Assembly: GCA_032718475.1 (NCBI GenBank)
Contig: JAUCBJ010008566.1
Coordinates: forward strand, 1 to 64,000
Origin: Nemertoderma westbladi
Taxonomy: Eukaryota; Animalia; Xenacoelomorpha
Reading direction: 5' to 3'
Length of the DNA stretch: 64,000 bases
The notes below the pieces were generated by a model that saw only the letters and a program-made list of their open reading frames with translations, ran no database searches and was not told the origin of the DNA. Positions 5,790 to 51,544 of this stretch are shown piece by piece. Made by a program: the position numbers and the translations under genes. Position 1 is the first letter of the stretch; each line of letters starts with the position of its first letter.

Positions 5790-5850
5790 ATTACATACTT
5801 CCGGAAACGATGCTGCGGATCCACAATCCCTCGCCACAAATAAGGCTGTC

Positions 5851-7575
5851 GTGGAAATTAGAGATAGAGATTGGAAATCTGGAATACCAGACGTCTCGCA
5901 AGGAATCTCACCCCTGCTGCAGAGAGCAATGCATCACTACAGTTCCTGGAATCGGCTCTGTAAAGCCGTCACATATTTAAGGCGATGTTTTCATCATCAC
6001 TACTCCAGGACGAAGACCACTAGTGATACCGCTCCATTGACATCTGCGCAAGTTCATGTTATTAAAAATTTACTCAAATATAAGACATCCGACCGGTTTC
6101 TAAAGGAGAAAATCAGTTACCAGGAGCATGAAGAAACCAATAAGCAGATACTGAGACTCCTGCAATGCTATGAGGATTCCGATAAGCATTTCCTGTTGTT
6201 GAGAAATCCGCAGATGCGCTTAAGGGATCGCTTCTCTAGCACAATGATAGATGGGTTAATGCGTGTTGGAGGAAGACTCACCAATGCGCCATTATCCTTT
6301 GACACTAAATTCCCCATACTCATTAGAAATCTTGAAGTACAAATCAAGATGATTGTAGATGTTCACAGTAAACTTTATCATGCTGGTAGAGAACGAGTTC
6401 TTAGCGAAATTCGAACTCGCTATTATTTTGATAAACCCCGTAGAGCTCTGAACCAAGTTCTTAGGAACTGCATACCCTGTAGGAAAGCATTCAGTAGGCC
6501 TTTAACACAGCGAGAGGCAGAATTACCTAGGGAACGAGTAAGCTTCTATGAACCACCTTTTACTAATACTGGTGTAGATTTATTTGGCCCTATTGAAGTA
6601 TATCGTGCTAGGACTATAGTCAAGAGATGGTGTGTCATCTTCGTATGCATGACTTGTAGAGCCATCCATCTCGATATGGTGAACGATCTATCTACCAACA
6701 GCTTCGTCTTAAGTTTACGCCGACAGATCGCTCGCTTCGGGACTAGTAATACCATGAGATCGGATAAGGGAACGAACTTCATTGGTGCCAACAACGAAAT
6801 CCAGGCTTACGTGAAGGACTGGAACCAAAGACAGGTGGACGATCAGCTAAGGATAACAGCGTCTAGCTGGACCTTCAACGCCGCCGACGCCCCTTGGTGG
6901 GGAGGAAGTTGGGAGAGATTAATTAGAAGTGTCAAGACCGCATTTCACTTTATAGTGCCATGCCGCGCATATCTCACCGACGAACTTTTGCGGACGTTAA
7001 TGGAGGAAATAGCTGCCTATCTCAACGAGAGACCGCTTATGCCAGTCTCATCGAGTCCCGATTCCCTGGAAGCGCTAACACCCGCGCACTTCCTACTGAA
7101 GAAACCTGTAGCCATGCTCCCACGATCGGAGATTGCCGACAGAGACGAATACTGCCGTCGAACTTGGCAACTTATGCAGTTGCTATCCCGTCGTTTTGCT
7201 GACCATTTCGAGAAACATTATCTGCCCATGCTACAACTTCGAACTAAGTGGTTTGCGCAGCAAGAAAACGTCAGCGCCGGAGATATGGTGCTTATTGTAG
7301 ATTCAGACCTTCCACGTAAACGGTGGCAGACAGGTCGTATCATCGAGACTCACATCTCGGATGATGGTTTAGTACGCTCGGTAGAACTCATCGTCATGCG
7401 GCGTAACTTCAAGAAGCCAGGCATAATCTTTGAGACGCAACAACTCAACCGCCCAGTTGGTCGTTTATGTTTACTGGAAAGAGACAGAGAACTCTCCGGA
7501 AACTATGGAAGGCAAGACACTCTTCCCACGACCACCTCCCTAATTCCTCAAACATCTAGGGACTCCCCAACGTGA
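5851..7575 (+). CDS. pol: BEL/Pao Pol C-terminal part: integrase (HHCC zinc finger, DDE core, BEL-type C-terminal domain)
   Basis: Motifs YSSWNRL, GLMRVGGRL, H-x4-H...C-x2-C, GVDLFGP, RSDKGTNF, APWWGGSWERLIRSVK, ALTPAHFL, YLPMLQLRTKW, DGLVRSV, RPVGRLCLL are typical of BEL integrases. Confidence 0.95.
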   Translation: MEIRDRDWKSGIPDVSQGISPLLQRAMHHYSSWNRLCKAVTYLRRCFHHHYSRTKTTSDTAPLTSAQVHVIKNLLKYKTSDRFLKEKISYQEHEETNKQILRLLQCYEDSDKHFLLLRNPQMRLRDRFSSTMIDGLMRVGGRLTNAPLSFDTKFPILIRNLEVQIKMIVDVHSKLYHAGRERVLSEIRTRYYFDKPRRALNQVLRNCIPCRKAFSRPLTQREAELPRERVSFYEPPFTNTGVDLFGPIEVYRARTIVKRWCVIFVCMTCRAIHLDMVNDLSTNSFVLSLRRQIARFGTSNTMRSDKGTNFIGANNEIQAYVKDWNQRQVDDQLRITASSWTFNAADAPWWGGSWERLIRSVKTAFHFIVPCRAYLTDELLRTLMEEIAAYLNERPLMPVSSSPDSLEALTPAHFLLKKPVAMLPRSEIADRDEYCRRTWQLMQLLSRRFADHFEKHYLPMLQLRTKWFAQQENVSAGDMVLIVDSDLPRKRWQTGRIIETHISDDGLVRSVELIVMRRNFKKPGIIFETQQLNRPVGRLCLLERDRELSGNYGRQDTLPTTTSLIPQTSRDSPT

Positions 7576-8120
7576 TACGTCTGGAGTGGGTGCATGACTA
7601 TATTATTCTATCTATTTTTATTATATTTTTATATGCGAACGTTATTATGTACTTTATTATAATCGTTTTATTTAATTTTATTTAGTAGAATGTTATTTTA
7701 GATTATTTAGTAGGTTAGTGCAATATATTAGTGTTTATTACGTAATTACACATAATATATATTTAATATGACGGCGAGAAATAATTCTTTCTTTTTCCTT
7801 ACTGTCCGTATTATATTATAAATACGAGACTACATGTAAGATGACATGTCAGTACTTATTAAAGTACAATAAAGCTCCTACTATATTTAAGTATTATTGG
7901 TAGGCAGAGTATTAGGAATGCAAAGTTCAGATCCTCGTGTCTCGGCTAAACCAAGCTCTGGGTAGACCTTGGAAACGACTTGCCTCTTCACACTGACATT
8001 GCTTCGTGCGATATTGCTCTTCTACTTTATATTAAATAATACATATAGTAGCGTGATGTCCCTATAACAGTAGCGTAAAACGCAAATAAATCTGTTAAAC
8101 CTTTTGACCATCTGTAATTT

Positions 8121-8385
8121 TAGTCGATTAAGATATCGCGGCACCCACCGATATACTTAAAAGACAAATTCTAGAATCAGTGGTTAACGTCCCCAGACAA
8201 GTTCTGGAATAAATCGGTGCCTATCTTAAATATTAATTTAATATTTATTAAAATCTGTAAAATACAGATCCTTTAAAATTTCTAGTCAATTAAGATATCG
8301 CAGCACTTACCGATACTCTTAAAAGACAATTTTATAGAATTAAGGATCCTAGGTCCCCAGACATGCTCTGGAATAAAATTGTGCC
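8121..8385 (+). repeat. Two-copy ~105-bp direct repeat in the 3' internal region of the BEL family
   Basis: TAGTCRATTAAGATATCGC...TCCCCAGACA..TCTGGAATAAA occurs at ~8121 and ~8283. Both copies are retained in D (~34001, ~34254) and E (~59620-59885, minus). Confidence 0.8.
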
Positions 8386-9011
8386 AATTTTACCATCAAA
8401 TAATAAAATTCACGGGAATAAAGTTAAATTCATATCTTAAATGAATTTCATAAATTGTCATTTTGTGCAATTTATAACATTCCCAAAATTCCATTAATTA
8501 ATAGATCATGGGAGCGGAGATTCATCCTATTGAGTGTATTAGAGTGCGAGAATCTCCAACATATAGTCAATAGCCGATAAAATTAATAAAATCATGTATA
8601 AAGAGGATATTGACAATTAAAGAATTACTATTAAATAGCATTCCAGATCTGTATACATGAGAATTACCCTAATTCTACCGCTAGCTTTCCATAATGTCAC
8701 CATAGCAACACCCACGCTAGAATTAGAAGCAAGTTAAAAGAACAATAGAAAGCTTGTCCCATTGCATAGCATAGAGAATACATAGCACACTGTTAGTATC
8801 CAAGGATACACAGTAATAACGTGACATTCTGGAAGGCACTGACCAACGGACAAATGGCCTGTATGTGTACAATTGGAGACAGTTGTGTGGAATTTGTGCG
8901 TTTATAGGTGAATGTTACTGCTAAAGTGTGTTTACAGTAGCTAGTCGCAATTGTGAAAGTAACCCTAACTCTACTATAGAAAGAACCTAAAGTGGATTCA
9001 AGCCTTTGGGA

Positions 9012-9116
9012 CGGACAGTGGAGTGACTTGTGCCGGTTATCGTTGTCGTGCTGTTGCTACATGTTGGCGTAAACACCGCGACAACGGTACATCGGCGCTG
9101 AGAATCCCACTGTCCG
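9012..9116 (+). ncRNA. Conserved cis-acting RNA stem-loop upstream of the extra ORF
   Basis: Stems CGGACAGTGG/CCACTGTCCG, GTGCCGGT/ATCGGCGC and CGTTGTCGTG/CGCGACAACG. Compensatory variants at 34982-35090 (+) and 58889-58996 (-). Confidence 0.75.
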
Positions 9117-9196
9117 GGGGCAAAGAAAGGTAGGCAGCGACGCCCGCTCGCCTAAACATAAACTCATTATAATATTAATAAACCCAAATAGCAGAT

Positions 9197-10796
9197 ATGA
9201 CGGAGTTGATAGAAGATGATCTTGGTATCAGGGAGCGATATACTCTACCTTTACAAGCATTTGTGGATAGCTTGATACGCGGTGAAGCCGATCCAACCAT
9301 TACGGAGGACGATGGTCGTTATATCGAACCGCCGATGTCCCAAGAGCAACTTACGCGTGAATTGGACTATCGAAAATTCACCGCTCGCTATACGCATCGT
9401 AATGGTACGTATATGGACTTCTTAACTACCGGCCATCCTATCGATTTACATGATACGGACGATGTAGACACCGAAAGGGAAATGGTTCTATTTAAATATC
9501 ATACCCAGCGGAGTCGTAACGATAAACCGAGAATAGAACACGAAAATTCTATTCGTAACAGACTGGAAAGAGAAAACGTTGAAGAACCGGATAAACGCAT
9601 CGACTTCAAAGACTACCTGGAATTTTTGAGAGAAACCTATCTCAACATCGCCAGTCAGCAGAACCTCGAGACTCTATATCCTCAAGGTATACATCATGAC
9701 CCCATGGTAGAACTCAAACGGCTCTATTTCACTATGATGTATCTTACCGCCGATCGTCCACTACCTGTTATCCCGGATAGTTTTGAACAAATGGAAGAAT
9801 ATTGCAAAACTGGAGAACGATCACCCGCGTTTCCTCTACAGGACGTACGTCTTTGGTGTTATTGTGACGAATGCCCTAGACCCAACCAACAAACTGAAGG
9901 ACACAAACGTCCGCTGTTCCTATTTCCACGAACAACCGGCGATGGAAATTTATTGTGCATATTGCAGACTCAATAACTTGCACATTTTTGCGGTTTGCCC
10001 TCAATTTATGACTCAATGTCACCATTGTCAACTAAAGGGACACGCCAGTTTCGATTGCCCTTTTAATCACGATTTGGAAAGCGTAGATGAAATGATTACA
10101 CTACGTTACATCAGAGCTTGGGAAGCGAACGCTGATTTACATTGTGATTCGCGCCATCGCTATTATCCTGGACGCGCTTACGAAGGAGTTTATGCGTTCC
10201 ATCCTTATCTATTCGCTTCTGTCGAACAGAAATCACGCATATCGAGTTACGAACTACTGAAGCGCGTCGGAGAATGTATTTCAACCAAATTCGTACGCAA
10301 ATTTCTCAGGAGTGTTAATCCTAGCGACCTTCATTCCTATAACTTAATCAATTTTATCCGTCAGGATCCGGGCTATGGAGACTTATTTGTTAACTCACAC
10401 CCCGAGTTACAGGAAGTCTATCGACGGCCTTACGAATACAGAGCCCACGAACGCGAGTTGGAAAGAACCATTAAACCCAGGAAGTTTCTGACTGCCTATG
10501 GTCCACCCACGGCTCTCGTTCAGACCACTCATAAAGGACCCGTAAGAGCGGCCGTCCTAAAACGCGCTCTAAAGGACGTTAGACGTTGATGTCTCTCCTC
10601 CGACGTTGATGTCAACCAACCCGGCACTTCGACCGGCGGATACACCGACCATAATCCTACACCCTCTGATGCAATCATATTGTACCCTTCACCCAGGAGT
10701 TATAGCCCTCCTTGTAAAGTGGCTCGCCCCAAAGAGAAAAAGACTCTGGCCAGCTTTAAAAAACTGCGTAAACGCCGTCCGCGCAAGAAAGACTAA
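9197..10796 (+). pseudogene. Extra 3' ORF of BEL copy B (multi zinc-knuckle protein), with one frameshift and one premature stop
   Basis: ORFs 9197..9976 and 9783..10589 plus a tail ending KKLRKRRPRKKD* at 10796. CHHCQLKGHASFDC is a C-x2-C-x4-H-x4-C knuckle. Homologs in C, D and E. Confidence 0.8.
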
Positions 10797-10873
10797 CTGT
10801 TTAGAGTATTTACGTATATTAGAAACTGTGATTTTGTATATTTATAGACTTGAATCCCATTTTCTGGGAGCGG

Positions 10874-12060
10874 TGTAAAAGCTTTTGCGGATATAATCAG
10901 TCCCCTTGCCCGCAAAGTACCGTGTGGGTGTTTTAACGGACATAAAAGTTGTTTTTCTATATGTGTGCTTTGGCGGACATGGCAAGACACAAAACCCGCA
11001 ATGCGTCAAATCCTCTAGCACAGTGTAGCCTTGATGATTCAGATTACGACATCTAACAGCTGGTTGCTGGCATGGAAACGGCCGTTGGACACATGGTTCT
11101 TTGTTCAGCTTAACAGCCAATCAGAGCGATTTTTACTTTAGACGTGGAGATATTCTACAGATCGTACTAGGCGTGTTCAGTCTTACTGTTTTCTGTGTTA
11201 CAGTTTTGTTGTTGCTTCTAGGCCAAGAACACCGGCTCTGGAGTCAATTTGTTTCAGACTTTAGAAGAAACATTAGTAGGCTTAGATTATAGAACGTATA
11301 ACTGTTATCAGTACAATCAGTGCTACATTAATGCACGGTGCAAGTCACTGCAACATACATTATTATACTGCTATTTACTGTTGTCATTATTTGTATCAGT
11401 TGGTTGAATATTATTACTTGGAGAACATCGATAAATAACCCAAATTTCCCAATTTTCTTGATACACTACAGGTTAGAGAGACAGGTTACATATAGCGATT
11501 GCGACTTATATTATCGTGGTTTGTAGTGAATTTAATGCTATTTGATAGGCACTACATGAGTCAATTGCTGTTCTCTTTATGTATGATAAAATTCATTGAC
11601 GGTCGGCAGATTAGTGTGCAGTATTGTGCTGTACCGGTAGTGTGCATGATTGTGGCTGATAACTAAGCATTTCCTAAAGAATGCGCCTCATACGTGAATC
11701 ATAAGCCTTACCTTCTTACCGTTGTGTTTAGTATAAGTCATATCTCTGTTTACCTAGATAGAGCGCCACGTCCTAAAGGAACTGTTAATATTTCCCGAAA
11801 GTGAATAATATTCGTCAGAAATTATTTATTAACGATCAATCGAATAATACAGTAAGCTTACACTGCAATAAAATCTAAGCCCTCCGAATCCAGTCTCCCG
11901 GGTATATCCAGCGGGTGAATGGACGCGCACTAGGCTGGCTTCGGCTAATGTTGTGTTTATTGGTATTAAATACTTGTCATATGTTGAAGTCTATTTATAA
12001 ACCAAAAGACATATAAATTTTGGCAGGTTAAACTGCTAAAGGTCTTCAAAAGCGCGTACA
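10874..12060 (+). repeat. 3' LTR of copy B (1187 bp)
   Basis: TGTAAAAGC...AGCGCGTACA, preceded by a short purine tract GGGAGCGG (putative PPT). AATAAA at ~11867. Confidence 0.9.
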
Positions 12061-12734
12061 AGGATCGTAAACTAATATAATGGCATTTAACTGCGAGGCA
12101 TACAGTAGTCAGCTCGTTCAACCTAATTTGTTCGGACCAGACCAGACTGCAGAGCTCAGACTCAGTTTGAGAGCCAGTACACTCAGGACAAGCAAGCGAA
12201 TCAACTATGACTGGGAGAAACTCAGAACTGACAATGCAGTAAAGGAAGCTCACACAGTAAAAAGTTCAACATCGCAAGAGAGAAAAGATGTTAAGATACT
12301 CCACTTGTGATTCGTTTATGGATTTGTTTTTCCCGAACACATTTACTGCCGTCAAGAAGACAACAGATTTATTGGACAATTCGTGCGCTTTACAACCAAA
12401 TCCCAGGTCATAACTCCCACAGAAGTTCTCTAAGAGTACAAGAGCTGCGTTACGATAGTGTTTCATACTTTCGAGATACTTTTCCACAGCTGATAGAACT
12501 TTGAAGCACATCGGGTTTATATTATTAAAATTTTGAAATTCATGAAAAGTCATAAAAATTGGTAAAATTTCAAATAAAATTTTCTATATTACATGGTGTA
12601 GTAAAGACATTAGGAATTTCATATAAATATTATTGGTTGGCTTAAATATCTCAAGATTTGCAGGCAAATAATAAATATTTTTGAGCCGTCCAGCATGCAT
12701 TCTTAAATTATTGAGAATGCATGCTGGATGGCTT

Positions 12735-14745
12735 CGAACTATTTGACCAACCGAACCATGATCCGAACAATTTGACCAACCGAACCATGATCCCAACAAT
12801 TTGACCAACCGAACCATGATCCCAACAATTTGACCAACCGAACCATGATCCGAACTATTTGACCAACCGAACCATGATCCGAACAATTTGACCAACCGAA
12901 CCATGATCCCAACAATTTGACCAACCGAACCATGATCCCAACAATTTGACCAACCGAACCATGATCCGAACAATTTGACCAACCGAACCATGATCCCAAC
13001 AATTTGACCAACCGAACCATGATCCCAGCAATTTGACCAACCGAACCATGATCCCAACAATTTGACCAACCGAACCATGATCCCAACAATTTGACCAACC
13101 GAACCATGATCCCAGCAATTTGACCAACCGAACCATGATCCCAACAATTTGACCAACCGAACCATGATCCCAACAATTTGACCAACCGAACCATGATCCG
13201 AACAATTTGACCAACCGAACCATGATCCCAACAATTTGACCAACCGAACCATGATCCGAACAATTTGACCAACCGAACCATGATCCCAACAATTTGACCA
13301 ACCGAACCATGATCCCAACAATTTGACCAACCGAACCATGATCCCAACAATTTGACCAACCGAACCATGATCCCAACAATTTGACCAACCGAACCATGAT
13401 CCCAACAATTTGACCAACCGAACCATGATCCGAACAATTTGACCAACCGAACCATGATCCCAACAATTTGACCAACCGAACCATGATCCCAACAATTTGA
13501 CCAACCGAACCATGATCCCAACAATTTGACCAACCGAACCATGATCCCAACAATTTGACCAACCGAACCATGATCCCAACAATTTGACCAACCGAACCAT
13601 GATCCCAACAATTTGACCAACCGAACCATGATCCCAACAATTTGACCAACCGAACCATGATCCCAACAATTTGACCAACCGAACCATGATCCGAACAATT
13701 TGACCAACCGAACCATGATCCGAACAATTTGACCAACCGAACCATGATCCCAACAATTTGACCAACCGAACCATGATCCGAACAATTTGACCAACCGAAC
13801 CATGATCCGAACAATTTGACCAACCGAACCATGATCCGAACAATTTGACCAACCGAACCATGATCCCAACAATTTGACCAACCGAACCATGATCCGAACA
13901 ATTTGACCAACCGAACCATGATCCCAACAATTTGACCAACCGAACCATGATCCGAACAATTTGACCAACCGAACCATGATCCCAACAATTTGACTAACCG
14001 AACCATGATCCCAACAATTTGACCAACCGAACCATGATCCCAACAATTTGACCAACCGAACCATGATCCCAACAATTTGACCAACCGAACCATGATCCCA
14101 ACAATTTGACCAACCGAACCATGATCCGAACAATTTGACCAACCGAACCATTATCCCAACAATTTGACCAACCGAACCATGATCCCAACAATTTGACCAA
14201 CCGAACCATGATCCCAGCAATTTGACCAACCGAACCATGATCCCAACAATTTGACCAACCGAACCATGATCCCAACAATTTGACCAACCGAACCATGATC
14301 CGAACTATTTGACCAACCGAACCATGATCCGAACAATTTGACCAACCGAACCATGATCCCAACAATTTGACCAACCGAACCATGATCCCAACAATTTGAC
14401 CAACCGAACCATGATCCGAACAATTTGACCAACCGAACCATGATCCCAACAATTTGACCAACCGAACCATGATCCGAACAATTTGACCAACCGAACCATG
14501 ATCCCAACAATTTGACCAACCGAACCATGATCCGAACAATTTGACCAACCGAACCATGATCCCAACAATTTGACCAACCGAACCATGATCCCAACAATTT
14601 GACCAACCGAACCATGATCCCAACAATTTGACCAACCGAACCATGATCCCAACAATTTGACCAACCGAACCATGATCCCAACAATTTGACCAACCGAACC
14701 ATGATCCCAACAATTTGACCAACCGAACCATCATCCGAACAATTT
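12735..14745. repeat. 29-bp minisatellite, ~69 copies, consensus CCGAACCATGATCC(C/G)AACAATTTGACCAA
   Basis: Head-to-tail units with no spacers; two main variants (CCCAAC and CCGAAC). Confidence 0.98.
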
Positions 14746-18565: not shown

Positions 18566-20266
18566 TCAGCCAGCTGCCAGCTTGTTGGTAGCTGTCTGGG
18601 TAACTGTTCGACTGCAGTTGGTTGGGAGCGATTCAAGTGCAGACTTCATGGAAGCCTTGAAGGCTGCCTCCTGCTCTGTCCTGCACTGTGCCATGGCTGT
18701 TTTGAGGGTCGCCTGATGATCAGCCACTCGGAGGTCGTTACCAGTCATGATGGACTCGACAATCATCGCCGTTCCGGTGATAGAAGCTGCCCATGATGGT
18801 TCAATCCTCGCGACTAGATCCCGAATTCCTATGCCACCATGGCGGGAGGGCAGCAGAAACAGATTCGTTGGATTGGTGGCTGATGGAGTACCAAATAGTG
18901 CTGGAATGGAGTGCAAAGGAGTAGAAAAAGCGGTTTGCGCGGCAAAGGAGTGTGGATCGTATTGTGGCTCTACATCACTCGCTATTGTATTGACCACTTG
19001 GAGGAGGTAGTCCCACTCATGCTGTACGCATCGAGACATTCCTGTGTGGGCTGTCTGGGGGTACTCCCCTGTTACCTCACTGAGCTTGGTTATACTCTGT
19101 ACCCATCTCCCTACTTTGTCTTTCACGAATTGCTTGCACCCCTCTGAGTCGCCTATGAACCCACCAAGGAATTTGTGGCCAGTGACCACTTGTATATTCC
19201 ACTTTCTGAATATGGTACGAGCTTGCTCTTCCAGCCTGGGCTTTACCACCAGGAAGAATTTGGTGGGCTCTGGGTTGTAGCCTATTGTGGGGCCACTTGT
19301 GGTGAGCTGGATCCACAATTTGTACACAGCGGCTAGCTTGCCTGCAGTGGAGGAGTCATCTGTAAACCAGCATTGGCGACTTGTCTCAGTTGGACCTGAG
19401 GTGGTGATTAAGGTTTGCTGAGGCTTCGTGGTGTTGATGTCTACAGTGGCGTTGCTAGTGGTCGATGAAGCCGAGATGTTGCCTGGGATACGAGACTGAT
19501 TACGCAGGGGCTGTGGAGATGGTGCGGTGGTGCTCAAAGGGTCTGCATTGTCTTTCCTCTCAGACTGAGCTGGTTTGAGGGCACGGACTAGAGGCAAGGT
19601 GCCACACCCACACATTAGCATGGCAAGGGGATCGCTCTGAGTCATGCCCTCTGCACTCCAAAGTGGTTCCTCACTACCGTGGAGGTATAATGTGACATGC
19701 CCATTATAGGCATTATAAAGGAACCTGGAGCACCGGTGCCAGTAGTGATGGCAGTTCATGAAGGCAACTGGGCAACTAAGTGAGTTAAAGGCGTTTGTTG
19801 CATCAATGTGGAGCATACAGTCGGAAGATTGGTCATCGAATAATGCTGACATGGCATGGATTCCACCCTCGATGCCCGCTTTAACGTCTGCACACAGCTG
19901 ATCCACACCAAATTCTACGAAGAAATCCATATTGGTGGCTGAGGCGAGGCAGTTGGCAAGGAGGCGGTATAGAACCTCCCCGATGCCGATAGGGCGGACT
20001 CCTGGCTGTTTGTCAAGGGCTATAAATCTACAAGCCCTGAGTGCCCTGATCTCGCCCCAGGGAACTACGGAGTTTGCTAACCGCCATGCCAGCCCGGATA
20101 CTGCCTCACGGTATCGAGCACTGTGGGAATTGTATCTGGTCAGTACTGCATTCCAAAACTCGGCATCGTCTCCCATTGGTCCGGCTGACCCTTTGAGTAT
20201 ATGGGTGACTTTAAGGCCCAGCTGCCAAAGTGACATCCACACCCTCAAATGGAGGGAGAGGATCAT
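18566..20266 (-). pseudogene. Reverse transcriptase region of the CRE element
   Basis: 566-aa ORF with CRE-type RT motifs. The catalytic region reads FTDD, with a ~60-aa low-complexity insertion before it. Confidence 0.85.
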
Positions 20267-21789
20267 CGTTCTTGAGAATGTCTGAATAAATGGGCATCTG
20301 TGGAGGATGTTTTTGGGCCAACAAGTCTCTCACAGTGGTGCCTTGAGGTTGACCCTCGGTTTGTGACTCTGGATCCAAGACACCTCCGTTATCCCGATAT
20401 GTGACCCAATGAATGGTTGCTCAGTTCTGTCCTGCAAGTATCTTTCTGTTAAAGATCTTCGCTGTGTTGCCTGCCTTTGAGCCCTTGTGGGTTGGGAATT
20501 TGTTGCTGCTGCGCTCTGCTGCTGTTACCAGAAGGCTGCGTGATTAATCACTGGATGTCTGGGCCTTTTTCACATCAGGATCACGTTGGAACAAGGTGGA
20601 CATGAGAAACAAATGTCGCTCTGATGGGTGGTTGCCATTTGTCACATAGTTAAACTCATTTGCAAGCAACTCATTAGCTTTTCTGCCTATGTTACCTCCT
20701 GGAACGAGATAACGGCGACCTGGTAGCTTAATGAGGCAGGCATGGCGGCTCTGTTGATGTTCCAGGTGCATTAACCCAGTCCCCCTTGAAGGAGGATTCT
20801 AAGAATTCGGTGGTTGGGGGATTCTGCATTGTACCATACATATTGATATTCTGTATTCCTTATGTGGGCTGCTCACTGTCGCTGGGGTTCCCCTTGGCAC
20901 ATGTGTTTGGGCAAGCAAATGGAGAAAAGTCCCTGGCATCAGTGGAGATGTCTTCATCGCTAATTACGGGAGATGGTGGGGCATCTAATTAGAGTGATTT
21001 AGTGATGGCTGGAGTGGTCCTTGTTGGGTTCCTATACATACAGTCCCATTACCATGGGCATACAGTCTTTGCAGCCTGACTTTGATTTCACACAGCTACA
21101 TCTGCTGGTGGGGCTACATCCTCTTGCGTCATACCTGCAGCATCTATGTGGTTGTATGGATGACTGTGACAATTAGGCTCTCCCATGGTTTATTGAGTTG
21201 TTGCTTGGAATGCATTGACAGATCATCTGCTGAGCTTGGTTGATCGGCTGGGGTGGACAGACTGAGTACTGGGCGTGTCGGGTTGGCATAAGAACTGGAA
21301 CAGGCAAGAACATTTACCCCAGTTGCTGAACTGTCATTGTACATGATCGCTGAATCCGCCAGGGGTTGTGTGCCAAAGGCAGGGCTTGCAAGAATGGGCC
21401 AATCAACGGGTGGGTCAGCCGGGTCGGTTAAGCAGTCATTCTGGCTTGCTTGATTACGTAAATCAACAGTTCCCTCATTGGGGATGGATGGGTTGCACCT
21501 GGAGGTGCTGCTAGATGCTCGGAATTGGCTGACCCGGCGATTGCGGGCTTATTGTCGGAACTTGTGGCAGCCTGATCAGCTAGCAAAGAAGCTCCATCGG
21601 CTGGTTCAACAAGAGTGAACATCTGGGCATCGGGGCCATCTGTGGGTCTGGTTTCTGTGGGACTATCAGGCAGGGTCTCATCTGCATCCACAAGGGTATC
21701 CTCGTCCGCCAATATATCGCTAGGTTTGGGTGGATGTGAGAATGGGCTACTACTAGGATCGGCATGCTGCATTGCAGCTGCATTTTCAA

Positions 21790-22867: not shown

Positions 22868-24796
22868 ATGTGTGAAAGTGAAAGGCTGCTAGATTTATTA
22901 AAATGCGAACAAACTCCAGATAGTTCGCATGGGTCCCCTGTCACTGGTCATGGGTCACCATCAATGGGAACTCGGATTGTTGATAGAGTTCACGGGGTAT
23001 TTCGATCTGCGCGGAGTTGTGTGTCTGCTGATTGTGGTGAGATTTTTGAAGATTCATCGAGCGAAGGCAATGATGAAATAGATACAGCGAGGGAAGACAA
23101 TGCTAAAAGAGATCCACTAAGAAAATATCGAAATAAATGGGGTACTGCCCGCAATGGGTTCAGGTTCATTGGAGAAAGAGATAAACGGGTTAATGCCTGC
23201 CATGGTTCGAAGGTCATTGGAGAAAGAGATAAACGGGTTAATGCCTGCCATGGTTCGAAGGTCATTGGAGATAGAGATAAGCTGGGTAGTGGATCTCATG
23301 TCACTGGTCACAGGTCACCATCAATGGGGACCCAGATTGTTAATAGAGTTCACGGGGTATTCCGATCGGCGAGGAGTTGTGTGTCTGCTGATGATGGTGA
23401 GATGTTTGAAGATGCATTGAGCGAAGGGAATGATGAAATAGATACAGCGAGGGAAGACAATGCTAAAAGAGATCCACTAAGAAAATATCGAGATAAATGG
23501 GGTACTGCCCGCAATGGGTTCAGGTTCATTGGAGAAAGAGATAAACGGGTTAATGCCTGCCATGGTTCGAAGGTCATTGGAGATAGAGATAAACGGGGTA
23601 CTGCCTATGGGTCGAGGGTCATTACAGATAGCGATAAGTGGGGTACTGCCCAAGGGTCGCGAGTCATTGGAGATAGGGATAAATGGGGTACTGCCCAAAG
23701 GTCGCGGGTCATTGGAGAAAGAGATAAATGGGTTACTGCCCATGGGTCGAGGGTCATTGGAGATAGAGATAAATGGGGTACTGCCCAAGGGTCGAGGGTC
23801 ATTGGAGATAGAGATAAATGGGGTACTGCCCAAGGGTCGCGGGTCATTGGAGAAAGATATAAATGGGGTACTGCCCAAGGGTCGAGGGTCATTGGAGATA
23901 GAGATAAATGGGGAACTGCCCATGGGTCGAGGGACATTGGAGATAGAGATAAATGGGGTACTGCCCAAGGGTCGCGGGTCATTGGAGAAAGAGATAAATG
24001 GGGTACTGCCCATGGGTCGAGGGTCATTAGAGATAGAGATAAATGGGGTACTGCCCAAGGGTCGTGGGTCATTGGAGATAAAGATAATTGGGGAACTGCC
24101 CATGGGTCACTGGTCATTGGAGATAGAGATAAATGTGGTACTGCCCAAGGGTTGCGGGTCATTGGAGAAAGAGACAAATTGGGTACAGCCCATGGGTCGA
24201 GGGTCATTGGAGATAGAGATAAATGGGGTACTGCCCATGGGTCGAGGGTAATTGGAGATAGAGATACGCGGGGTACTGCCCATGGGTCGAGGGCCATTGG
24301 AGATAGAGATAAATGGGGTACTGCCCATGGGTCGAGGGTCATTGGAGATAGAGATAAATGGGGTACTGCCCATGGGTCTAGGGTCATTGGAGATAGAGAT
24401 AAATGGGGAACTGCCCATAGGTCACGGGACATTGGAGAAAGAGATAATCGGGGTAGTCCCCGCTTGTTTCCTGAAATTCAAAATGGACGAAGTAGTGCGC
24501 ATGGGTCTCGTGTCACTAGTAACAGGTCACCATCAATGGGAACCCGGTTTGTTAATAGAGTTCACGGGGTATACCGATCTGCGCAGAGTTGTGTGTCTGC
24601 TGATGATGATGGTGAGATGGTTGAAGATCCATCCGGAGAAGGCAATGATAGAATAGATACAGTTGTGGGAGATGTACAACATTCAATATGGGAAGAAAGT
24701 GATGTAGAAAGAATTATGGATGATCTTCCTATATACACAAGAGCTTCACAACGCAGCGCGACCATAAGGTCTTACAGGAAAATTATCAATCAATAA
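22868..24796 (+). CDS. Orphan 642-aa protein with 15-aa tandem repeats (GDRDKWGTAHGSRVI) and a module present three times
   Basis: Uninterrupted ORF built on a 45-bp repeat (~23120-24450) and a 360-bp duplication. The stop codon overlaps AATAAA, as in the paralog at 16702. Confidence 0.45.
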   Translation: MCESERLLDLLKCEQTPDSSHGSPVTGHGSPSMGTRIVDRVHGVFRSARSCVSADCGEIFEDSSSEGNDEIDTAREDNAKRDPLRKYRNKWGTARNGFRFIGERDKRVNACHGSKVIGERDKRVNACHGSKVIGDRDKLGSGSHVTGHRSPSMGTQIVNRVHGVFRSARSCVSADDGEMFEDALSEGNDEIDTAREDNAKRDPLRKYRDKWGTARNGFRFIGERDKRVNACHGSKVIGDRDKRGTAYGSRVITDSDKWGTAQGSRVIGDRDKWGTAQRSRVIGERDKWVTAHGSRVIGDRDKWGTAQGSRVIGDRDKWGTAQGSRVIGERYKWGTAQGSRVIGDRDKWGTAHGSRDIGDRDKWGTAQGSRVIGERDKWGTAHGSRVIRDRDKWGTAQGSWVIGDKDNWGTAHGSLVIGDRDKCGTAQGLRVIGERDKLGTAHGSRVIGDRDKWGTAHGSRVIGDRDTRGTAHGSRAIGDRDKWGTAHGSRVIGDRDKWGTAHGSRVIGDRDKWGTAHRSRDIGERDNRGSPRLFPEIQNGRSSAHGSRVTSNRSPSMGTRFVNRVHGVYRSAQSCVSADDDGEMVEDPSGEGNDRIDTVVGDVQHSIWEESDVERIMDDLPIYTRASQRSATIRSYRKIINQ

Positions 24797-28489: not shown

Positions 28490-30725
28490 TGTTCGCGCTT
28501 TCAGACCTTTAGCAGTTTAACCTGCCAATTTTAGGTGTCCTCTTGTTTATAAATCGACTTTAGCCTATAACAAGTATTTAGTGCACATGAAGTAACATTA
28601 GCCGAAGCCAGTCTATGCGCGATCATTCACCCACAGTTAAGGGAGACTGAATTCGGGTGCTTTGAAGTTATTGCGTTGCAGACCTACTGTATTATTCGAT
28701 TGATCGTTACTATATAATCTCTGACAATATTATTCACTTTCGGGGAAATATTAACAGTTCCTTTAGGACGTGGCGCTTTAAGTATAAAACAGAGTTATGA
28801 CTTACACTAAACACAACGAGATGGTTACTGATTTTCGTAAATAGCGCATTCTTTAGGAGATGCTTTATTATCTGTCACACTGCTGCATACGACTTCACAC
28901 TGCTGCACACTGATCTGCCGACCGTCACTGAATTCGACCATATAGAAGGAGGATAGCAACTGACACATGTAGGGATTATGAAATAGCATTTAATTCACAC
29001 TAAAACCACTATAATGTAAGTCGCAATTGCTACCGGTAACCAGTCCCTCTTACCTTCAGTAATCAAGAAGATTGGGGGTTTTATGATTATTTATCGGTAT
29101 TCTCCAAATATAACAACATATCCAATATAACAATTAATAACAGACAGTAAACAGCAGTAAAATAATGCGGTGAATAGGATTGAGTGAGTGCAGTTTGATC
29201 AGTCAGGCCCAGTTGTTATGGTTTGTTGCACAGTTGCACAGTGCAGATAATAGATTTACGTTCTTATAATCAAAGCCGTCTAATGTTGGCCAAAGTCTGA
29301 AACTTCCAACACAGAAGTACAGAAGAATTTCCAAGCAGTTGTTCTCGCTCAGAAAGGTAAACAAAGACCGTAATGCATTGCGCGGTTTTCCATAGGCCTC
29401 TGTACAAGATAAAATGAAAATCGCTCTGATTGGCCGAGCCTGAACAAAGAGAGGCTCCACGTGTACAGTAAATCAGCTGACAGATTTCGTCATCGGAGTT
29501 CCAGTCTTTTAGAGTATTAGGCGTATTGCGGCAGAAAATGGCTTGTTATGTCCGCTAAAACACCTACAGGGTACATTGCGGAGAAAATGGCTTGTTATGT
29601 CCGCTAAAACAACTACACAGTTCATTGCGGAGAAAAATGACTTGTTATATCCGCAAAAGCTTTTACAAGGCTCCCAGAAAATGGGATTTAATTCTATAAA
29701 ATATAAAAAATCACAGTTTCTAAAATATAAAAATACTCTAAACAGTTAGTCCTTCTTACGCGAACGGCGTTTACGCAGTTTTTTGAGGCTAGCAAGAGTC
29801 CTTTTCTCTTTGGGGCGAGCCACTTTACTAGGAGGGCTATAACTCCTAGGTGAAGGGTGCAATACAATTGCATCAGAAGGTTTAGGGTTACGGTCGGTGT
29901 ATCCGCCGGTCGAGGTACCCGGTTGATCGGTATCAACCTCAGTGGAACGAGGTCGAACAACCTTGAGAGCGCGTTTTAAGACAGCAGCTCTTACTGGTCC
30001 CTGATGGGTCGTTTGCACGAGAGCGGTAGGTGGACCGTATGTAGTGAGAAATTTCCTCGGTTTGATGGTTCTTTCCGACTCGCGTTCTCGGGCTCTGTTG
30101 AAATCGATATGCTTCTCCTCGAGCTGATTTTCCTCAGCTTGTTGTTGGAGGCATTCGTCCAAAACTCTTTCAGAGAGTAGGGTCGTCCAAGTTCGATATC
30201 TTCTTAGAGGTCCTGGATTTCCCGATCGAGCTGAGATAAAGCTAATTCGTTTACCGCTTGGACTTGCTGCTGCAATTTACGTTTCTCTAAACAATCGTAG
30301 GTTCCTTTTCCGATCTTTTGTCGAATAGTGTCTAACGCATTGCGTACAACTTTCTCCTCCACCTCGGTGACAGGTTGTATCGGGGTTAAACCGGGTTGAT
30401 TATACGGGTTGAACGGCGATATTAAATGTCCGCGTCCCAATCCAGCTAGGTAGGATGGGCGAATATCTAGGGAGCCCACAACCGGAGTGCCACTGACTTA
30501 TTGTTCGGGTAACACTAGATCTTTGAACAATTAGTACAGTTCAGGAGGATCCGTCATACTATTAGGATCAAGAGTCTGAGGTCTCACCAGGGAATGAGGA
30601 GGTCTGACCGAGTATTCCGGAACTCCGATCATAAGTTCATCCAAGGACCATTTGAGTCGAGCGAGCGTAGGTAATACGTCGAACAAGTTTCGCTCGAAAC
30701 TCCCGTAAATATAGTGAGTAAAACT
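28490..30725 (-). mobile_element. BEL/Pao copy C: 3' fragment (extra-ORF remnant 29746-30725 and 3' LTR 28490-29667)
   Basis: LTR ends conserved; PPT-like CTGGGAGCCT next to the LTR; extra-ORF tail KKLRKRRSRKKD. Confidence 0.9.
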
Positions 30726-33373
30726 TTGCAACTGTCCAACTAACCATAACAACTGGTCACTTGGCACCTGCGGTACCGGTATTACCGATACTGGCTGAAT
30801 ATCACCACATTATTGTACTTCTGTTTACTGTCTGTTATTAATGGTTATATGTTGATGGATATGTTGTTATATTTGGAGAATATTGATAAATAATCATAAA
30901 ACCCCCAATCTTCTTGATTACTAAAGGTTAGAGGGACCGGTTACCGGTAGCAATTGCGACTTACATTACAGTGGTTTTAGTGTGCATTAAATGCTATTTC
31001 ATAATCCCTACATGTGTCAGTTGCTATCCTCCTTATATATGATCAAATTCAGTGACGGTCGGCAGATCAGTGTGAAGCAGTGTGAAGTCGTGTGCAGTAG
31101 TGTGACAGATAATAAAGCATCTCCTAAAGAATGCGCTATTTACGAAAATCAGTAGCCATCTCGTTGTGTTTAGTATAAGTCATAACTCTGTTTTATACTT
31201 AAAGCGCCACGTCCTAAAGGAACTGTTAATATTTCCCCGAAAGTGAATAATATTGTCAGAGATTATATAGTAACGATCAATCGAATAATACAGTAGGTCT
31301 GCAACGCAATAAATTCAAAGCACCCGAATCCAGTCTCCCTTAACTGTTGGTGAATGATCGCGCATAGACTGGCTTCGGCTAATGTTACTTCATGTGCATT
31401 AAATAATTGTTATAGGCTAAAGTCGATTTATAAACAAGAGGACACCTAAAATTGGCAGGTTAAACTGCTAAAGGTCTGAAAGCGCGAACAATAATAGATT
31501 TCTAGATTCTTTATTGCACCGTAGGCAATAAAGTCGAAGGTACCGGTCGAACGGTAAGCTGTAGGCCTAACTGCCCAACTGCCCGAACCGGTACTTACAG
31601 GTACAGCAGTATTATTCGATTTTGATAATTATATACCGGTAGGTCTTGATATTTAATCAGGGACGCCTGGTTTTTTATTGGGATTTTACTTATTTCTGTC
31701 AGTTTTATTTATTTGTAAGTGTAATATTGAGCAGAAGGCGTGTAAGCCTGCTCAGATTGTATAAATAATTTGTAGGCTGGATTGTTGTCTGACTGTTGTT
31801 AAGTCTGAAGAGATTGCAGTGTGTGTAGAGTGTATGTCCGATAAAGTACTAGTTAGGAAGGTGACAGCATCCAGTGCTGTAAGGTAAATCCCCCCCGAAA
31901 GAATAAGTCGTACTACTCGGTTAGAACGCATACTAACTAACCATTTCGGAGTCTGCATATACTGTAGTTTATTTAGGCTTGATAGTAGTCTGCCAGCGTT
32001 TGGTTTGTATTTTGTTTGTGTAGTCTGTACGGGTAGCGTAATATTTACTATTCAGAGTCTATGCTATTATTCGCAACCTACATAATCCCAAGTTTATTCC
32101 TACAGTAATTGTGCTTGTTATACATACCGTTATAGTTATATTAACCCCGGTACTACATCAGGGCTGCTTGGCGTAGGTAAAGACTGGTGATTTTATGCTC
32201 TAGTCACTCCAGCAGATACCGAGGTTCTCTTAGCTGTACAAGTATATTCAACTGCTGGTTATTTGTTGTATAAGTACTTGTACCTAATTTAGGGTTCAGT
32301 GTACAGTGCTTTCCGAAAGTAATTAGTGTGTAGGCAGTATATTTGTGTTGTAAAGTGGTTAATAGGCACGTTAGCTCTGGTTGGCTGCGGTAATTAACTT
32401 CTAGGTAAGAACACTCCGGGTACATAATGTAGTACTTATAGAGCTGTACAGCTAAAGACTATAAGTCATCAGACGGTGGTATTTTCTTATCTGGACAACG
32501 CAATTTATTTACTACTGCTTAATTATTTTTAAATACCGTAGTATCCTGTCCATTTGTAAGAACCAGAAATTCTAACTTCTTGTTAGGCTGGTTTGTAGAA
32601 AATTTGTACGTGTAACTTTTGTGTTTATTTAGAGATTGTAATCTCACCCAGTAATTGTACGTAATTTGTAGTAATAAGTAACTTAGTCAAGTAGAACTAT
32701 TTGTTTTAGTGTCCAACAAGTAGCACTTTACTGAGAGCGTACAGCTTCTGTGTAGTGACTCCTTACCAGAAATAATAACATTTATTTTAAATATTGTCAA
32801 AAACCCATTATAAGGGTATATATATATTATAAATCAACTCAAACCAATTTATAAAATAGTAGGCCTGTTATCCATCAATTAGGTCTTAATATCAGTTGGA
32901 CTACTGCTTAATATCAGTAATAAAGTAAAGAAAAGTAACCCTAAAATTCAGAAATTCAATTATTATAAAATAATTGACATACCGGTATTTACGATAGGCT
33001 TATTATATTTATTTCCATAAATTTAAGCTGAAATTATATACCGGTATTCTGTAATTAATTCAAGTCTATAATCATACTTATATATACTATAAGTGTAAGT
33101 TGTATACCGGTATTCACGGTAGGCTTATTATATATATTTCTATATATTTATGCTGAAATTATATACCGGTATTCTATGACAAACCCTAGTCTGTAATAAT
33201 ACTTATATATATACTATAAGTGGATACCGGTATTCTAATATATTATATATATATATCGCGTTACATTGAGTAACGATATCGGTAATTAATTACTAGGCTA
33301 ACAGTTGATACTGCATTACTAGACTTGCTTTAACTGTCGTTATATTAGTAGGCATTCAACTGTACAATCAAAC

Positions 33374-33997
33374 ATGGCTGACACAAAGCAAACTCTGTCA
33401 GATAGTCTCCTAGAAACAACAGTCTGCGACTCCGACAGGAGTACCGAACATTTGAGACCAAAGTTCAAGTCCCCTCCTACTGTAAGAAAAGTCATCCCTT
33501 CAGTAGTAGTATCAGACCCTAGGCTAGTAAAGCACCGTAGGTCTATCATAGGCACTCGGGCTCAAGTCAAGCGGGACCAAGAGGCAGCTGTTAAACAGCA
33601 GCAACACCCGAGCCGAGAACTTATTTCTCAGCGGCCCGATAGCTCCGGTAGTTCAGATACTGTAGAGTTGACACCCGAGCGCAGAGCAAAGATGGCAGAA
33701 GCAGTTTATTCGGATCCACTTCTCATTCTTCCTGAAGCCGTACTCACTAGAGTATTGATTGCGGTGGAGGAACATCAAATCGATTGGGCGAGAAGTAAGC
33801 GATCGACCAAGGACAGTTATGCGGGATACACAAAGGAGGAACTGAAGTCTATTGTCGAGACGCAATGGAACTTCCCCGGACCCGGACTCCCGTTTAACTT
33901 ATCGGAAGCTGCCTGGGAGGACTTATACAGGATGGGAGTAGTAAAGGACACTAGAGATCCAGCAATAGAGTCTGTTAAACCCTTTGACCATCTGTAA
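33374..33997 (+). pseudogene. gag: Truncated gag N-terminus of copy D
   Basis: Homologous to copy A gag for ~198 aa, then reads through the deletion junction to a stop. Confidence 0.85.
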
Positions 33998-35170
33998 TTC
34001 TAGTCGATTAAGATATCGCGGCACCCACCGATATACTTGAAAGACAAAATTCTAGAATCAATGGTTAACGTCCCCAGACATGTTCTGGAATAAATCGGTG
34101 CCCATCTTAAATATTACATAGTTAATATTTATAAAAATCTATTAAAACAAATGTTATAATAGAGTAAATGCATACAAATAAACTCTAAGGAGTTTGTAAA
34201 CCAAGAAAATCTATGAATCAAAATCTGTTAAATTTTAGATCCTTTAAAAATTCTAGTCGATTAAGATATCGTAGTACTTACCAATACCCTTAAAAGGACA
34301 AATTTCCTAGAATCAAGGATCCCAGTCCCCAGACATGCTCTGGAATAAAATTGCGCCTATTTAACATTAAATAATAAAATTAACGGGAATAAATTTAAAT
34401 TCATATCTTCTCATGAATTTGATAAATTGTATTTTATACAATTTATAATATTCCCAAACTTCCATTAATTAATAGATCATGGGAGCGGAGATTCACCCTA
34501 TTAAGTGTATTAGTGTGCGAGAATCTCCAATATATAGTCAATAGCCGATAAAATTCATAAAATCATGTATGAAGGGGAATATTGACAATTAAAGAATTAC
34601 TATTAAATAGCATCCCAGATCTGTATGCATGAGAATTACCCTAATTCTACTGCTAGCTTTCCATAATGTCACCATGGCAACAACCACGCTAGAATTAGAA
34701 GCGAGTTAAAAGAACAATATAAAGCTTGCCTCATTGAATAGCATACGGAATAAATAGCGCACTGCTAGTATCCAGGGATACATAATAATAACGTGGCATT
34801 CTGAAAGGCACTTGACTAACGGACAAATGGCCCGAATGTGTACAATTTGTGACAGTTGTGTGGAATTTGTGCGTTTATAGGTGAATGTTAATACTAAAGT
34901 GTGTTTACAGTAGCGAGTCGCAGTTGTGAAAGTAGCCCTACCTCTGCAGTAAGAACCTGAAGTAAATCTAAGCCCTTGGGACGGACAGTGGAGTGACTCG
35001 CGCTGGTTGTTGTTGTCGTTGTGTAGCTACTATGTTGGCGATAGACACAACGGCGACAGTACATCAGCGCTGAGGAACTTGCGCTGTCCGGGGGCATTGA
35101 GGTGGAGGCAGCAACGACCGCTAGCCTAAATTATAATTAATTATAATATCGATAAACTCATATAGCAGCT

Positions 35171-36725
35171 ATGACTGAGTTGATAGAAGATGATCTTGGT
35201 ATCAGGGAGCGATATACCCTACCATTGCAAGCGTTTGTTGATAGTTTAATACGCGGCGACGCTAGTCCACCCACTACGGAAGACGATGGCCGTTATATCG
35301 AACCGCCAATGTCAAAGGAACAGCTCACGCGTGAATTGGACTATAGAAAATTCACCGCTCGCTATACGCATCGTAATGGTACGTATACAGACTTCTTTAC
35401 TACTGGCCATCCTATCGATTTACATGATATGGACGATGTAGACACCGAAAGGGAAATGATCCTATTTAAATATCATACCCAGCGGAGTCGGAGCAATAAA
35501 CTGAGAATCGAACACGAAAATTATATTCGAAACTAACTCGAAAGAGAAGACGTTAAAGAACCAGATAAACGCAGTGACTTCAACGTATCTTTGGAATTAT
35601 TGAGAGAGACATTGTAAAACTGGAGAAAGATCACCAGCGTTTCCCCTACAAGACGTGCGTCTTTGGTATTATTACGATGAATGCCCTAGACCCAACCAAC
35701 ACACGGAAAGACATAAACATCCGCGGAGATGTTGCGCTAAACACAGTTTTTACTCGCTATACTTACGGGAGTTTCGAGCGAAACTTGTTTGCGTATCACC
35801 TACGCTCGCTCGACGCAAACGATCCTTAAATAAACCGATGATCAGAGTTCTGGAATACTCGGTCAGACCTTCTCATTCCCTAGTGAGACCTCAGACTCTT
35901 GATCCTAATAGTATGACGGAACCTCCTTAACTGTACTCATTGTTCAAAGATCTAGTGTTACCCGAACAATTAGTCGGTAGCACTCCGGTTGTGGGCTCCC
36001 TAGATATTCGCCCATTCTACCTAGCCGGATTGGGACGCGGACATCTAATATCGCCATTCAACCCATACAATCGTCCTGGGTTAACCCCGATACAACCCAT
36101 CACCGAGGTGGAGGAGAGAGTTGTACGCAACGCGTTAGACACTATTCGACAAAAGATCGGAAAAGGAACCTACGATTGTTTAGAGAAACGTAAATTGCAG
36201 CAGCAAGTCCAAGCGGTAAACGAATTAGCTTTATCTCAGTTTGATCGAGAAATCCAGAATCTCTAAGAAGATATCGAACTTGGACGACCCTACTCTCTAA
36301 AAGAGTTTTGGACGAATGCTTCCAACGACAAGCGGAGGAAAATCAGCTCGAGGAGAAGCATATCGATTTCAACAGAGCCCGAGAACGCAAGTCGAAAAGA
36401 ACCATCAAACCGAGGAAATTTCTCACTACACACGGTCCACCTACCGCTCTCGTGCAAACGACCCGTCAGGAACCAGTACGAGCTGCTGTCTTAAAACGCG
36501 CTCTCAAGGTTGTTCGACCTCATTCCACTGAGGTTGATGCCGATCAACCGGGTACCTCGACCGGCGGATGCACCGACCGTAATCCTAAAACCTTCCGATG
36601 CAATTGTATTGCACCCTTCACCCAGGAGTTATAGCCCTCCTAGTAAAGTGGCTCGCCCCAAAGAGAAAAGGACTCTTGCTAGCCTCAAAAAACTGCGGAA
36701 ACGCCGTTCGCGTAAGAAAGACTAA
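35171..36725 (+). pseudogene. Extra 3' ORF of copy D, with stops and deletions
   Basis: Starts MTELIEDDLGIRERYTLPLQAF and ends KKLRKRRSRKKD*, as in B. Confidence 0.85.
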
Positions 36726-39090: not shown

Positions 39091-39199
39091 AATCCACAAC
39101 GCTGGCTTCCAAGGGAGCCACACAAATTGCGAAAAGCAAACACAGCACTGGATGTATTAAAAATTCTAATCGACTCGAATATTCTAAGGAACCCTAAAG

Positions 39200-42990: not shown

Positions 42991-43405
42991 CCTACACATC
43001 AAACTTTTACAGACTGATCTAGACACCGTTTCTAACCATAAGGTCTTATTTTGTCATATAATCTATGAGATTAATATATATTGTTAATGATATTGTTATT
43101 ATTATTTTATATTTGGTATATTGGTATAGATATATACAACAGTTTGTGCATCTAGCATCCAACATAACATACAGTACATGTATGCGTGCTTGTTTCATAT
43201 TTTATTTATTTTCTGATACAATTTAATCGAATTATGAATATTTTTATTAAGCCTCAATTTTTCTTGTTACTAACTATTACAGTTACTATTTGATTATTAT
43301 TTAGATTAATTACCATAAAAAATAACTAAGTGACTGATATTTTATGACACTATTTTCGACTTTAATTGTAATGGTAGGAAATCATATATGATATATGATA
43401 TATAT

Positions 43406-51393: not shown

Positions 51394-51544
51394 TCATACA
51401 ACAATGCTGCAAGGCTGTTATTTAAGATCCCTCATAGGAGTAGTAGTACTGTAGGTATTCTTTGTGGCTCATAATCTACCCTGTTTTATTCATTTACGGT
51501 ATAGGTCTATTTCTTTTATTTTTTTTTTTTTTTTTTTTTTTTTT

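Follow-up and report, generated by a model that had tools for sequence, protein, structure and literature searches.

Extra putative ORFs in the Cer BEL elements of C. elegans were reportedly described by Bowen and McDonald in 1999. Overlapping ORFs in these elements are also cited in the accessible part of PMC9094657. The ICTV profile of the Belpaoviridae names no genes other than gag, pol, and one that is env-like (PMC8742986). According to the available text of de la Chaux and Wagner (PMC3118150), env is present in few BEL/Pao elements, and the third ORFs of nematode BEL/Pao elements encode fusion proteins according to the available portions of two further sources (PMC9094657, PMC554778). 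Among other LTR elements, Cer1 needs the accessory protein CERV, the product of a spliced mRNA, to export its gRNA, as stated in the accessible part of PMC10309623, and the terms BEL, zinc, and CCHC have 0 occurrences in the available text of the paper on bdelloid ORF3s (PMC5408684). In the literature that we searched, the third ORFs described for BEL/Pao are env-like, and none is a non-env zinc-knuckle ORF3.

Here, we analyzed a 64,000-nucleotide stretch of DNA from Nemertoderma westbladi (contig JAUCBJ010008566.1, positions 1 to 64,000; hereafter, the window), in which an original prediction made from the sequence alone had placed a zinc-knuckle ORF between pol and the 3′ LTR of an LTR element. 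We find that this extra ORF is a genuine non-env gene of the element and is under purifying selection.

RESULTS

The window contains five pieces of one LTR family, i.e., copy A (5789 to 1, minus strand), copy B (5790-12063, plus strand), copy C (30723-28490, minus strand), copy D (30723-38082, plus strand), and copy E (64000-56246, minus strand), and we assumed that these letters correspond to those of the original prediction. Copies A and B meet back to back at 5789/5790, while copy C is inverted and lies head to head with the truncated 5′ LTR of copy D at 30723; the identity of copy C to the 3′ end of copy D is 94%. The LTRs of the family are ~1.2 kb long. The 3′ LTR of copy B (10874-12063, plus strand) has a short purine-rich tract just before it, and the two LTR pieces of copy D are identical at 752 of 768 positions. 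The 5′ leader before the gag ATG is AT-rich, contains internal repeats, and is unusually long at 1.9-2.2 kb (31491-33340, plus strand; 4579-2400, minus strand).

We took the gag/protease layout that defines the Belpaoviridae from the available text of PMC554778. The gag-protease frame of copy E (60442-63999, minus strand), which is open for 1,186 codons, has this layout: it matches DUF1759 (E 7e-12) and Asp_protease_2 (E 0.003) in Pfam and contains a triple Cys-His box and, after it, an LLDSG protease, of which ALLDSGS is visible. The pol remnant of copy B (5790-7575, plus strand) is truncated at its 5′ end by the LTR of copy A and comprises the end of RNase H and the integrase (Integrase_H2C2, E 4e-7). 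As in Belpaoviridae pol, it includes the DUF5641 integrase region (E 2e-20), and its top matches are BEL/Pao polyproteins with PF05380 at 31-41% identity. No RT of this family lies within the 64-kb window. Based on these predicted domains, the host element family is BEL/Pao and is without a close database relative. Public DNA contigs span the whole of copy B at high depth (55,534 contigs in run X1), which supports that the family is highly repeated, with the summed contig depth being no measure of copy number.

A further Belpaoviridae criterion is a primer-binding site of 18 nt for tRNA-Arg/Gly downstream of the 5′ LTR. By eye, a TGG-type tRNA primer site was not seen after the 5′ LTRs of copies A and D. 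Immediately past the 5′ LTR, 11 nt in copy D (31491-31501, plus strand) and 13 nt in copy A (just below 4580, minus strand) can instead pair with a homologous site inside the LTR. The LTR partners are at ~415 in copies C and D and at ~441-468 in copies A and E, and both partners of the complement change together between the A/E and C/D types of LTR. These LTR-adjacent complements represent an apparent Tf1-like self-priming signature in a BEL element; on self-priming, the literature searched yielded only work on plant and fungal elements.

Several other features of the window were noted. A 1,513-codon open frame at 51715-56256 (minus strand) contains long GVGAGQS-type repeats followed by what by eye has the look of a non-LTR retrotransposon ORF, and a 587-codon frame at 18566-20329 (minus strand) has a similar look; searches of both frames against Pfam returned nothing at E 0.1. 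Fragments at 38473-42602 (plus strand) match a Ulp1-like C48 peptidase (E 3e-4) and RVT_1 (E 9e-7), and this region probably represents the decayed remains of a non-LTR element that carried a SUMO-protease-like domain. Tandem satellites at 12735-14745, 22930-24660, and 43405-51400 have periods of ~29/58, 45, and 38/76 nt, respectively.

Remnants of the extra ORF are present in sense orientation in all four copies for which they had been predicted (B, C, D, and E), with that of copy C being truncated at its 5′ end. In copy B, the remnant extends from an ATG at 9197 to a stop codon at 10794-10796 (plus strand). In agreement with the predicted distance of about 1.6 kb, this ATG lies 1,621 nt past the pol stop, from which it is separated by an AT-rich, non-coding spacer (7576-9196, plus strand; GC content 0.35). 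The predicted start MTELIEDD is found in copies B and D, while copy E reads MTELIEDG. The conserved sequence ATAGCAG ends the spacer 2 nt before the ATG in copies B, D, and E and is a possible splice acceptor. The KKLRKRRxRKKD-type tail is present in all four copies, as predicted, and the stop codon of copy B is followed after 77 nt by the LTR.

The remnant in copy B can be divided into three blocks (all plus strand). Block 1 (9197-9913) encodes an acidic N-terminal region of 239 aa with a net charge of −17 and includes a 164-nt stretch (9637-9800) that is gone from copies D and E at identical breakpoints. This gap is out of frame, and other, public contigs carry B-like sequence before position 35611 of copy D. 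We ruled out splicing as the origin of the gaps, as the 164-nt gap lacks GT...AG ends. After a frame break at 9913-9915, the knuckle segment (9915-10437), which within the window occurs only in copy B, is an open frame of 174 aa. The C-terminal block (10438-10796) contains the basic tail (10758-10793). In addition to the frame break, we identified a second lesion in copy B that was absent from the original prediction, i.e., an in-frame stop at 10587-10589 that severs the basic tail.

The other remnants are built differently. Copy C (29746-30723, minus strand) contains a segment that we refer to as the PEYSV segment, with three stops, and an open tail of 140 codons. The remnant in copy D (35171-36725, plus strand) consists of block 1 with the 164-nt gap, the PEYSV segment (35724-36370), and the tail, and has several stops and frameshifts. 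Copy E (57521-58806, minus strand) has the same dead form as copy D plus three further gaps. The PEYSV segment is thus missing from copy B and kept in copies C, D, and E, as originally proposed, and the two middles are without similarity to each other. The probability that an open frame arises by chance is ~1e-6 for a length of 239 codons and ~7e-6 for 224 codons, the length that is open at the knuckle segment. In public run X5, the ORF region is covered ~10-fold more deeply than pol, with depth being a quantity that does not rank genes.

The knuckle segment encodes a pair of zinc knuckles (9954-10058, plus strand). The first, CAYCRLNNLHIFAVC (9954-9998), is a C-x2-C-x5-H-x4-C variant of the CCHC motif, and the second, CHHCQLKGHASFDC (10017-10058), has the canonical C-x2-C-x4-H-x4-C spacing; the two are separated by a 6-residue linker. 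Three Cys/His clusters in a row had been predicted; only two knuckles are solid, and the first of the three clusters is weak. At this cluster, copies D and E read Y-Y-Y-D-E/K-C versus C-Y-C-D-E-C in copy B, and copy B departs from ~99% of the contig depth at base 9858, in the Cys that immediately precedes the cluster. A six-frame scan of the window for knuckles returned seven matches, comprising the copy B pair, two gag knuckles of copy E, and three in satellite sequence. Because Gag has its own knuckles, the pair in the ORF is an additional one. The second knuckle matches Pfam zf-CCHC at E 0.08 and 13.5 bits, under the curated cut-off of 20.8, and the ESM Atlas neighbors of the knuckle segment are zf-CCHC clusters at 0.78-0.83, which, like all of the ESM Atlas matches, lie below 0.9 and are leads only. 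Overall, the ORF combines an acidic N-terminus, a short-linker CCHC pair, a Pro/Ser-rich stretch, and a basic end.

The prediction that the ORF is not env-like was borne out in the five pieces scanned, in all of which the maximal 19-residue hydropathy is at most 0.84 (block 1, 0.46; tail, −0.01 to 0.19; overall, 0.84). As no hydrophobic segment exceeds 0.84, the blocks seen are not env-like, a verdict that covers the stretches kept by at least one copy. Also in line with the prediction, searches of Pfam, PDB sequences, and proteins returned no env or host-gene match and no similarity to a viral fusion glycoprotein. Specifically, Pfam returned nothing significant for the extra ORF, including no ORF1, RRM, nuclease, or DNA-binding domain. 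Block 1 had 0 homologs among 871 candidate longer proteins and 0 matches at E 0.001 among 1.84 billion representatives, and the knuckle segment had 0 among 446 candidate longer proteins at E 1. Against PDB sequences, block 1 and the PEYSV segment matched nothing; the best match overall, methionine synthase (E 0.059), was judged to be due to chance, and Air2 was among the matches at E 9.6. A comparison with 120 BEL polyproteins gave one match (E 0.27), located on the gag knuckle region. AlphaFold single-sequence models of the ORF had pLDDT values of 35 and 38. No related locus was found in metagenome or viral contigs, and the searches turned up no related element of another species. We note that the host proteome seems to be absent from the databases, the best pol identity being 31-41%, and that homology to cellular or LINE proteins was not detected in them; the ORF could conceivably be a recent capture from a host gene or a non-LTR ORF1.

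Between copies B and D, differences over 298 aligned codons are distributed 27/25/78 over the three codon positions, and dN/dS is 0.16 (297 codons without a stop; Fisher p 2.5e-21), not ~1. In control comparisons, shifted frames gave dN/dS values of 1.1-2.0, and the antisense frame that shares third positions gave 0.24, while non-coding spacers gave 0.67-1.05 with flat codon-position differences. Within block 1, stretches of 145 and 37 codons gave dN/dS values between copies B and D of 0.16 and 0.11, respectively. For the tail, copy B compared to copies C and D gave 0.06-0.11 in the first part and 0.26-0.28 in the second part. The pooled value of 0.16 is similar to those obtained for gag (0.20-0.21). 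For the PEYSV segment, dN/dS between copies C and D is 0.37 (differences 13/10/18 by codon position). Among the sites listed for this segment, third positions account for 8 of the 10 that are polymorphic among contigs (p 0.003), 3 of the 11 that are private to copy D, and 2 of the 8 that are rare (29 rows, among 40 listed of 238). The knuckle segment exists as a single copy in the window and, hence, has no dN/dS value; three contig pieces that are 14-17% divergent align to it with 0 gaps, and all seven pieces listed for the spacer contain gaps.

The pattern differs between copies D and E, which have the 164-nt gap with identical ends in common and, together with copy C, a stop in the PEYSV segment. 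Differences between copies D and E are flat over the codon positions (62/58/63; chi-square p 0.89), which speaks for neutral divergence of the ORF. Their count-based dN/dS is 0.60 (p 0.004), not 1, and the spacer controls also go down to 0.67-1.05. In copy E, RT, RNase H, and most of the integrase are deleted, and the gag-protease frame is open over its 1,186 codons. The gag of copy A is open for 806 codons, and gag dN/dS between copies A and E is 0.20 (55 differences in 325 codons). These copies are young insertions of lineages whose third ORF was already decaying during replication. Copy E (63999-60442, minus strand) belongs to a non-autonomous, gag-protease-only lineage, as does, probably, copy A (2399-1, minus strand). 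Such gag-protease-only copies are reminiscent of plant TR-GAG elements. As the ORF decayed in copy E despite a selected gag-protease, this lineage could do without it in cis, as would be expected of a product that acts in trans; its loss from a non-autonomous lineage would be compatible with any such role, of which RNA export is just one. We infer that selection acts on gag-protease in cis and that the product of the third ORF is either supplied to defective copies in trans or required by autonomous elements only.

Because the two middles occur in different copies, the order of the blocks was assessed using the public contigs. According to the original prediction, the frameshift of copy B at ~9914 resulted from the loss of 5 nt relative to copy D. 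The change of frame is evident; a small indel as its cause is unsupported. The proposed loss relies on a 4-base match to copy D that includes base 35730, which is the minority base in all four runs (the other letter is present in 88, 47, 2, and 4 contigs), and past the break no run of at least three matches between copies B and D occurs at offsets 0-69 from position 35724 of copy D. The junction between block 1 and the PEYSV segment is covered in all four runs (depth at D 35730 of 430,693, 340,747, 14.9, and 2,137), and the junction between the knuckle segment and the tail is bridged without gaps by the ~14% divergent contigs X3 record 14 and X5 record 32, with position 10440 of copy B having depths of 154,282, 192,868, 11.7, and 7,845. 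The junction between the PEYSV segment and the tail in copies C and D is thinly covered (depth at 36371 of 8,411, 2,721, 0, and 0), where B-type contigs may drop out since the contig match cut was 80% and the tail of copy D is 78% like that of copy B; the depth at 36366 may fall in large part because of an E-type junction. X4 record 23 aligns to copy B only from 9915, leaving 284 nt upstream unaligned; the key records of X4 are single low-depth contigs, and this run is labelled as a different organism. In the runs examined, we saw no contig joining the PEYSV segment to the knuckle segment.

Based on these data, we favor, with somewhat more than even confidence, an ancestral protein of ~750 aa or more in which the PEYSV segment would follow the N-terminus and the knuckle segment would precede the basic tail, perhaps with a stretch not seen here between the two segments. 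Copy B would then have lost the PEYSV part at 9914, and copies C and D the knuckle part at 36371. Because the contigs favor placing the PEYSV segment before the knuckles, the break in copy B at 9914 is likely a large-deletion junction. An ancestral length of over 700 aa, as originally proposed, is plausible if the non-overlapping blocks of ~239, 215, 174, and 117 aa (~745 aa) represent one protein. There is perhaps a one-in-four chance that they never did and that the knuckle and PEYSV segments are alternative middle modules of two subfamilies. The two middles are without overlap or similarity and both stop at the same point before the tail, copy C reads in frame through the point where the PEYSV segment meets the tail, and the lack of a linking contig would also be accounted for. 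The family is, moreover, mosaic, in that dS between copy B and copies C and D is 0.9-1.0 in the first part of the tail (10438-10584 versus 36371-36518) and 0.4-0.5 in block 1. The junction in copy B is, however, out of frame, and the 284 nt upstream in X4 record 23 match neither block 1 of copy B nor the listed pieces of the PEYSV end of copy D; X4 contigs with similar depths of 5.4-6.5 cover block 1, both PEYSV ends, and the knuckle segment, and this similarity in depth is weak evidence for one element. The order of the original prediction, in which block 1 runs straight into the knuckles to give three clusters and the PEYSV segment precedes the tail, we consider improbable. It draws on the adjacency of the copy B pieces in the window and on the 4-base match just after the break, but the anchoring base in copy D is the minority one, the first Cys of the cluster is present in neither copy D nor copy E, and both well-covered junctions would have to be deletion products. 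As a separate matter, copy E combines the LTR type of copy A with the dead ORF form of copy D, and this mixture together with the contrast in dS points to recombination between subfamilies.

DISCUSSION

Retroviral Rev and Rex are accessory proteins for nuclear RNA handling in trans. Our leading reading, to which we give an even chance, is that the extra ORF is a third, non-env gene of a high-copy BEL/Pao family and encodes a trans-acting nuclear nucleic-acid-binding helper working in the manner of Rev and CERV. In this model, the protein would be made from a subgenomic RNA that is spliced or internally started, the basic tail would take it into the nucleus, the knuckle pair would bind element RNA and promote its export or handling, and the product would be supplied in trans to other copies of the element. 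When a protein is translated from a separate RNA, it has no means of favoring its own genomic RNA, and defective elements could therefore borrow it; Gag, by comparison, can act in cis and would therefore stay selected. The nuclear RNA-binding role originally proposed for the ORF protein is plausible.

Two other functions deserve consideration. With a probability of perhaps one in five, the protein is a nuclear anti-silencing or chromatin factor that binds either the DNA or the nascent RNA of the element and maintains transcription throughout the family, defective members included. VANC proteins provide a precedent for anti-silencing. The basic tail, the Cys/His motifs, the dispensability in cis, and the very high coverage of the family are all compatible with such a factor; on the other side, Pfam detected no DNA-binding domain, and short-linker CCHC knuckles, as in nucleocapsid, Lin28, and Air2, mostly bind single-stranded nucleic acid. 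Extra ORFs of plant Retand elements have been proposed to bind DNA and regulate transposition in the available text of PMC11963269, which also speaks for this function. Slightly less probable still is an RNA chaperone that resides in the cytoplasm or associates with particles, may derive from a captured non-LTR ORF1, and would serve the folding or cutting of self-priming RNA or its packaging. In its favor, the family seems to carry a self-priming signature where a tRNA site would be expected, and short-linker knuckle pairs are typical of nucleocapsid and ORF1 proteins. Gag, however, already contains a triple Cys-His box, and neither an ORF1, an RRM, nor a nuclease domain was found in Pfam or the ESM Atlas.

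More speculatively, and with less confidence than in the helper itself, the family may represent a "complex" BEL/Pao lineage that combines tRNA-free self-priming with a new family of large zinc-knuckle accessory proteins licensing RNA export or primer formation in trans. If so, gag-protease-only parasites without pol or the accessory gene could reach very high copy numbers. A selected, non-env, knuckle-bearing orphan ORF would add a new family of accessory proteins to the LTR superfamily that has been studied least and offers a handle on how unspliced RNA exits the nucleus, or how silencing is evaded, in BEL/Pao. In the same vein, pol-less copies whose gag-protease is under selection and whose third ORF has decayed provide a natural cis/trans test of what retroelement genes do.

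The env-bearing Belpaoviridae (Tas, Cer7, Cer13, Atlas, and Roo) have the same gag-pol backbone and a third gene between pol and the 3′ LTR (PMC8742986 and the available parts of PMC554778 and PMC9094657). The present element differs from them in that no signal peptide, transmembrane helix, or glycoprotein match is present in the blocks seen, in that the third gene is a separate ORF 1.6 kb after pol with zinc knuckles and a basic C-terminus, and in that no tRNA-type primer site was seen by eye after the 5′ LTR of copy A or D. CERV of the C. elegans Ty3/gypsy element Cer1 likewise serves an LTR element as an accessory protein and has Cys-rich motifs, and nuclear RNA handling in trans is the role that we propose, by analogy, for the present ORF. 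According to the accessible part of PMC10309623, the gypsy-encoded CERV consists of M and G domains with a C4-type loop, whereas the present ORF has CCHC knuckles and a 3′ position; the likeness lies in the inferred mode of working. The non-env ORF3s of bdelloids also lie in sense orientation after pol in animal LTR retrotransposons, but carry GDSL esterase, DEDDy exonuclease, coiled-coil, and TM features in the available text of PMC5408684, while the present ORF matches no family. The additional ORFs of plant elements (Retand TRP28, Grande gene 23, and RIRE2) similarly occupy a long region between pol and the 3′ LTR, are conserved, and are possibly nuclear and regulatory; as far as the available parts of PMC7264820 and PMC11963269 describe them, they are mostly antisense and in gypsy elements, in contrast to the sense orientation, BEL/Pao context, and CCHC knuckles of the present ORF. 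The non-env knuckle ORF is, thus, a fresh variation on the known "ORF3" theme of LTR elements.
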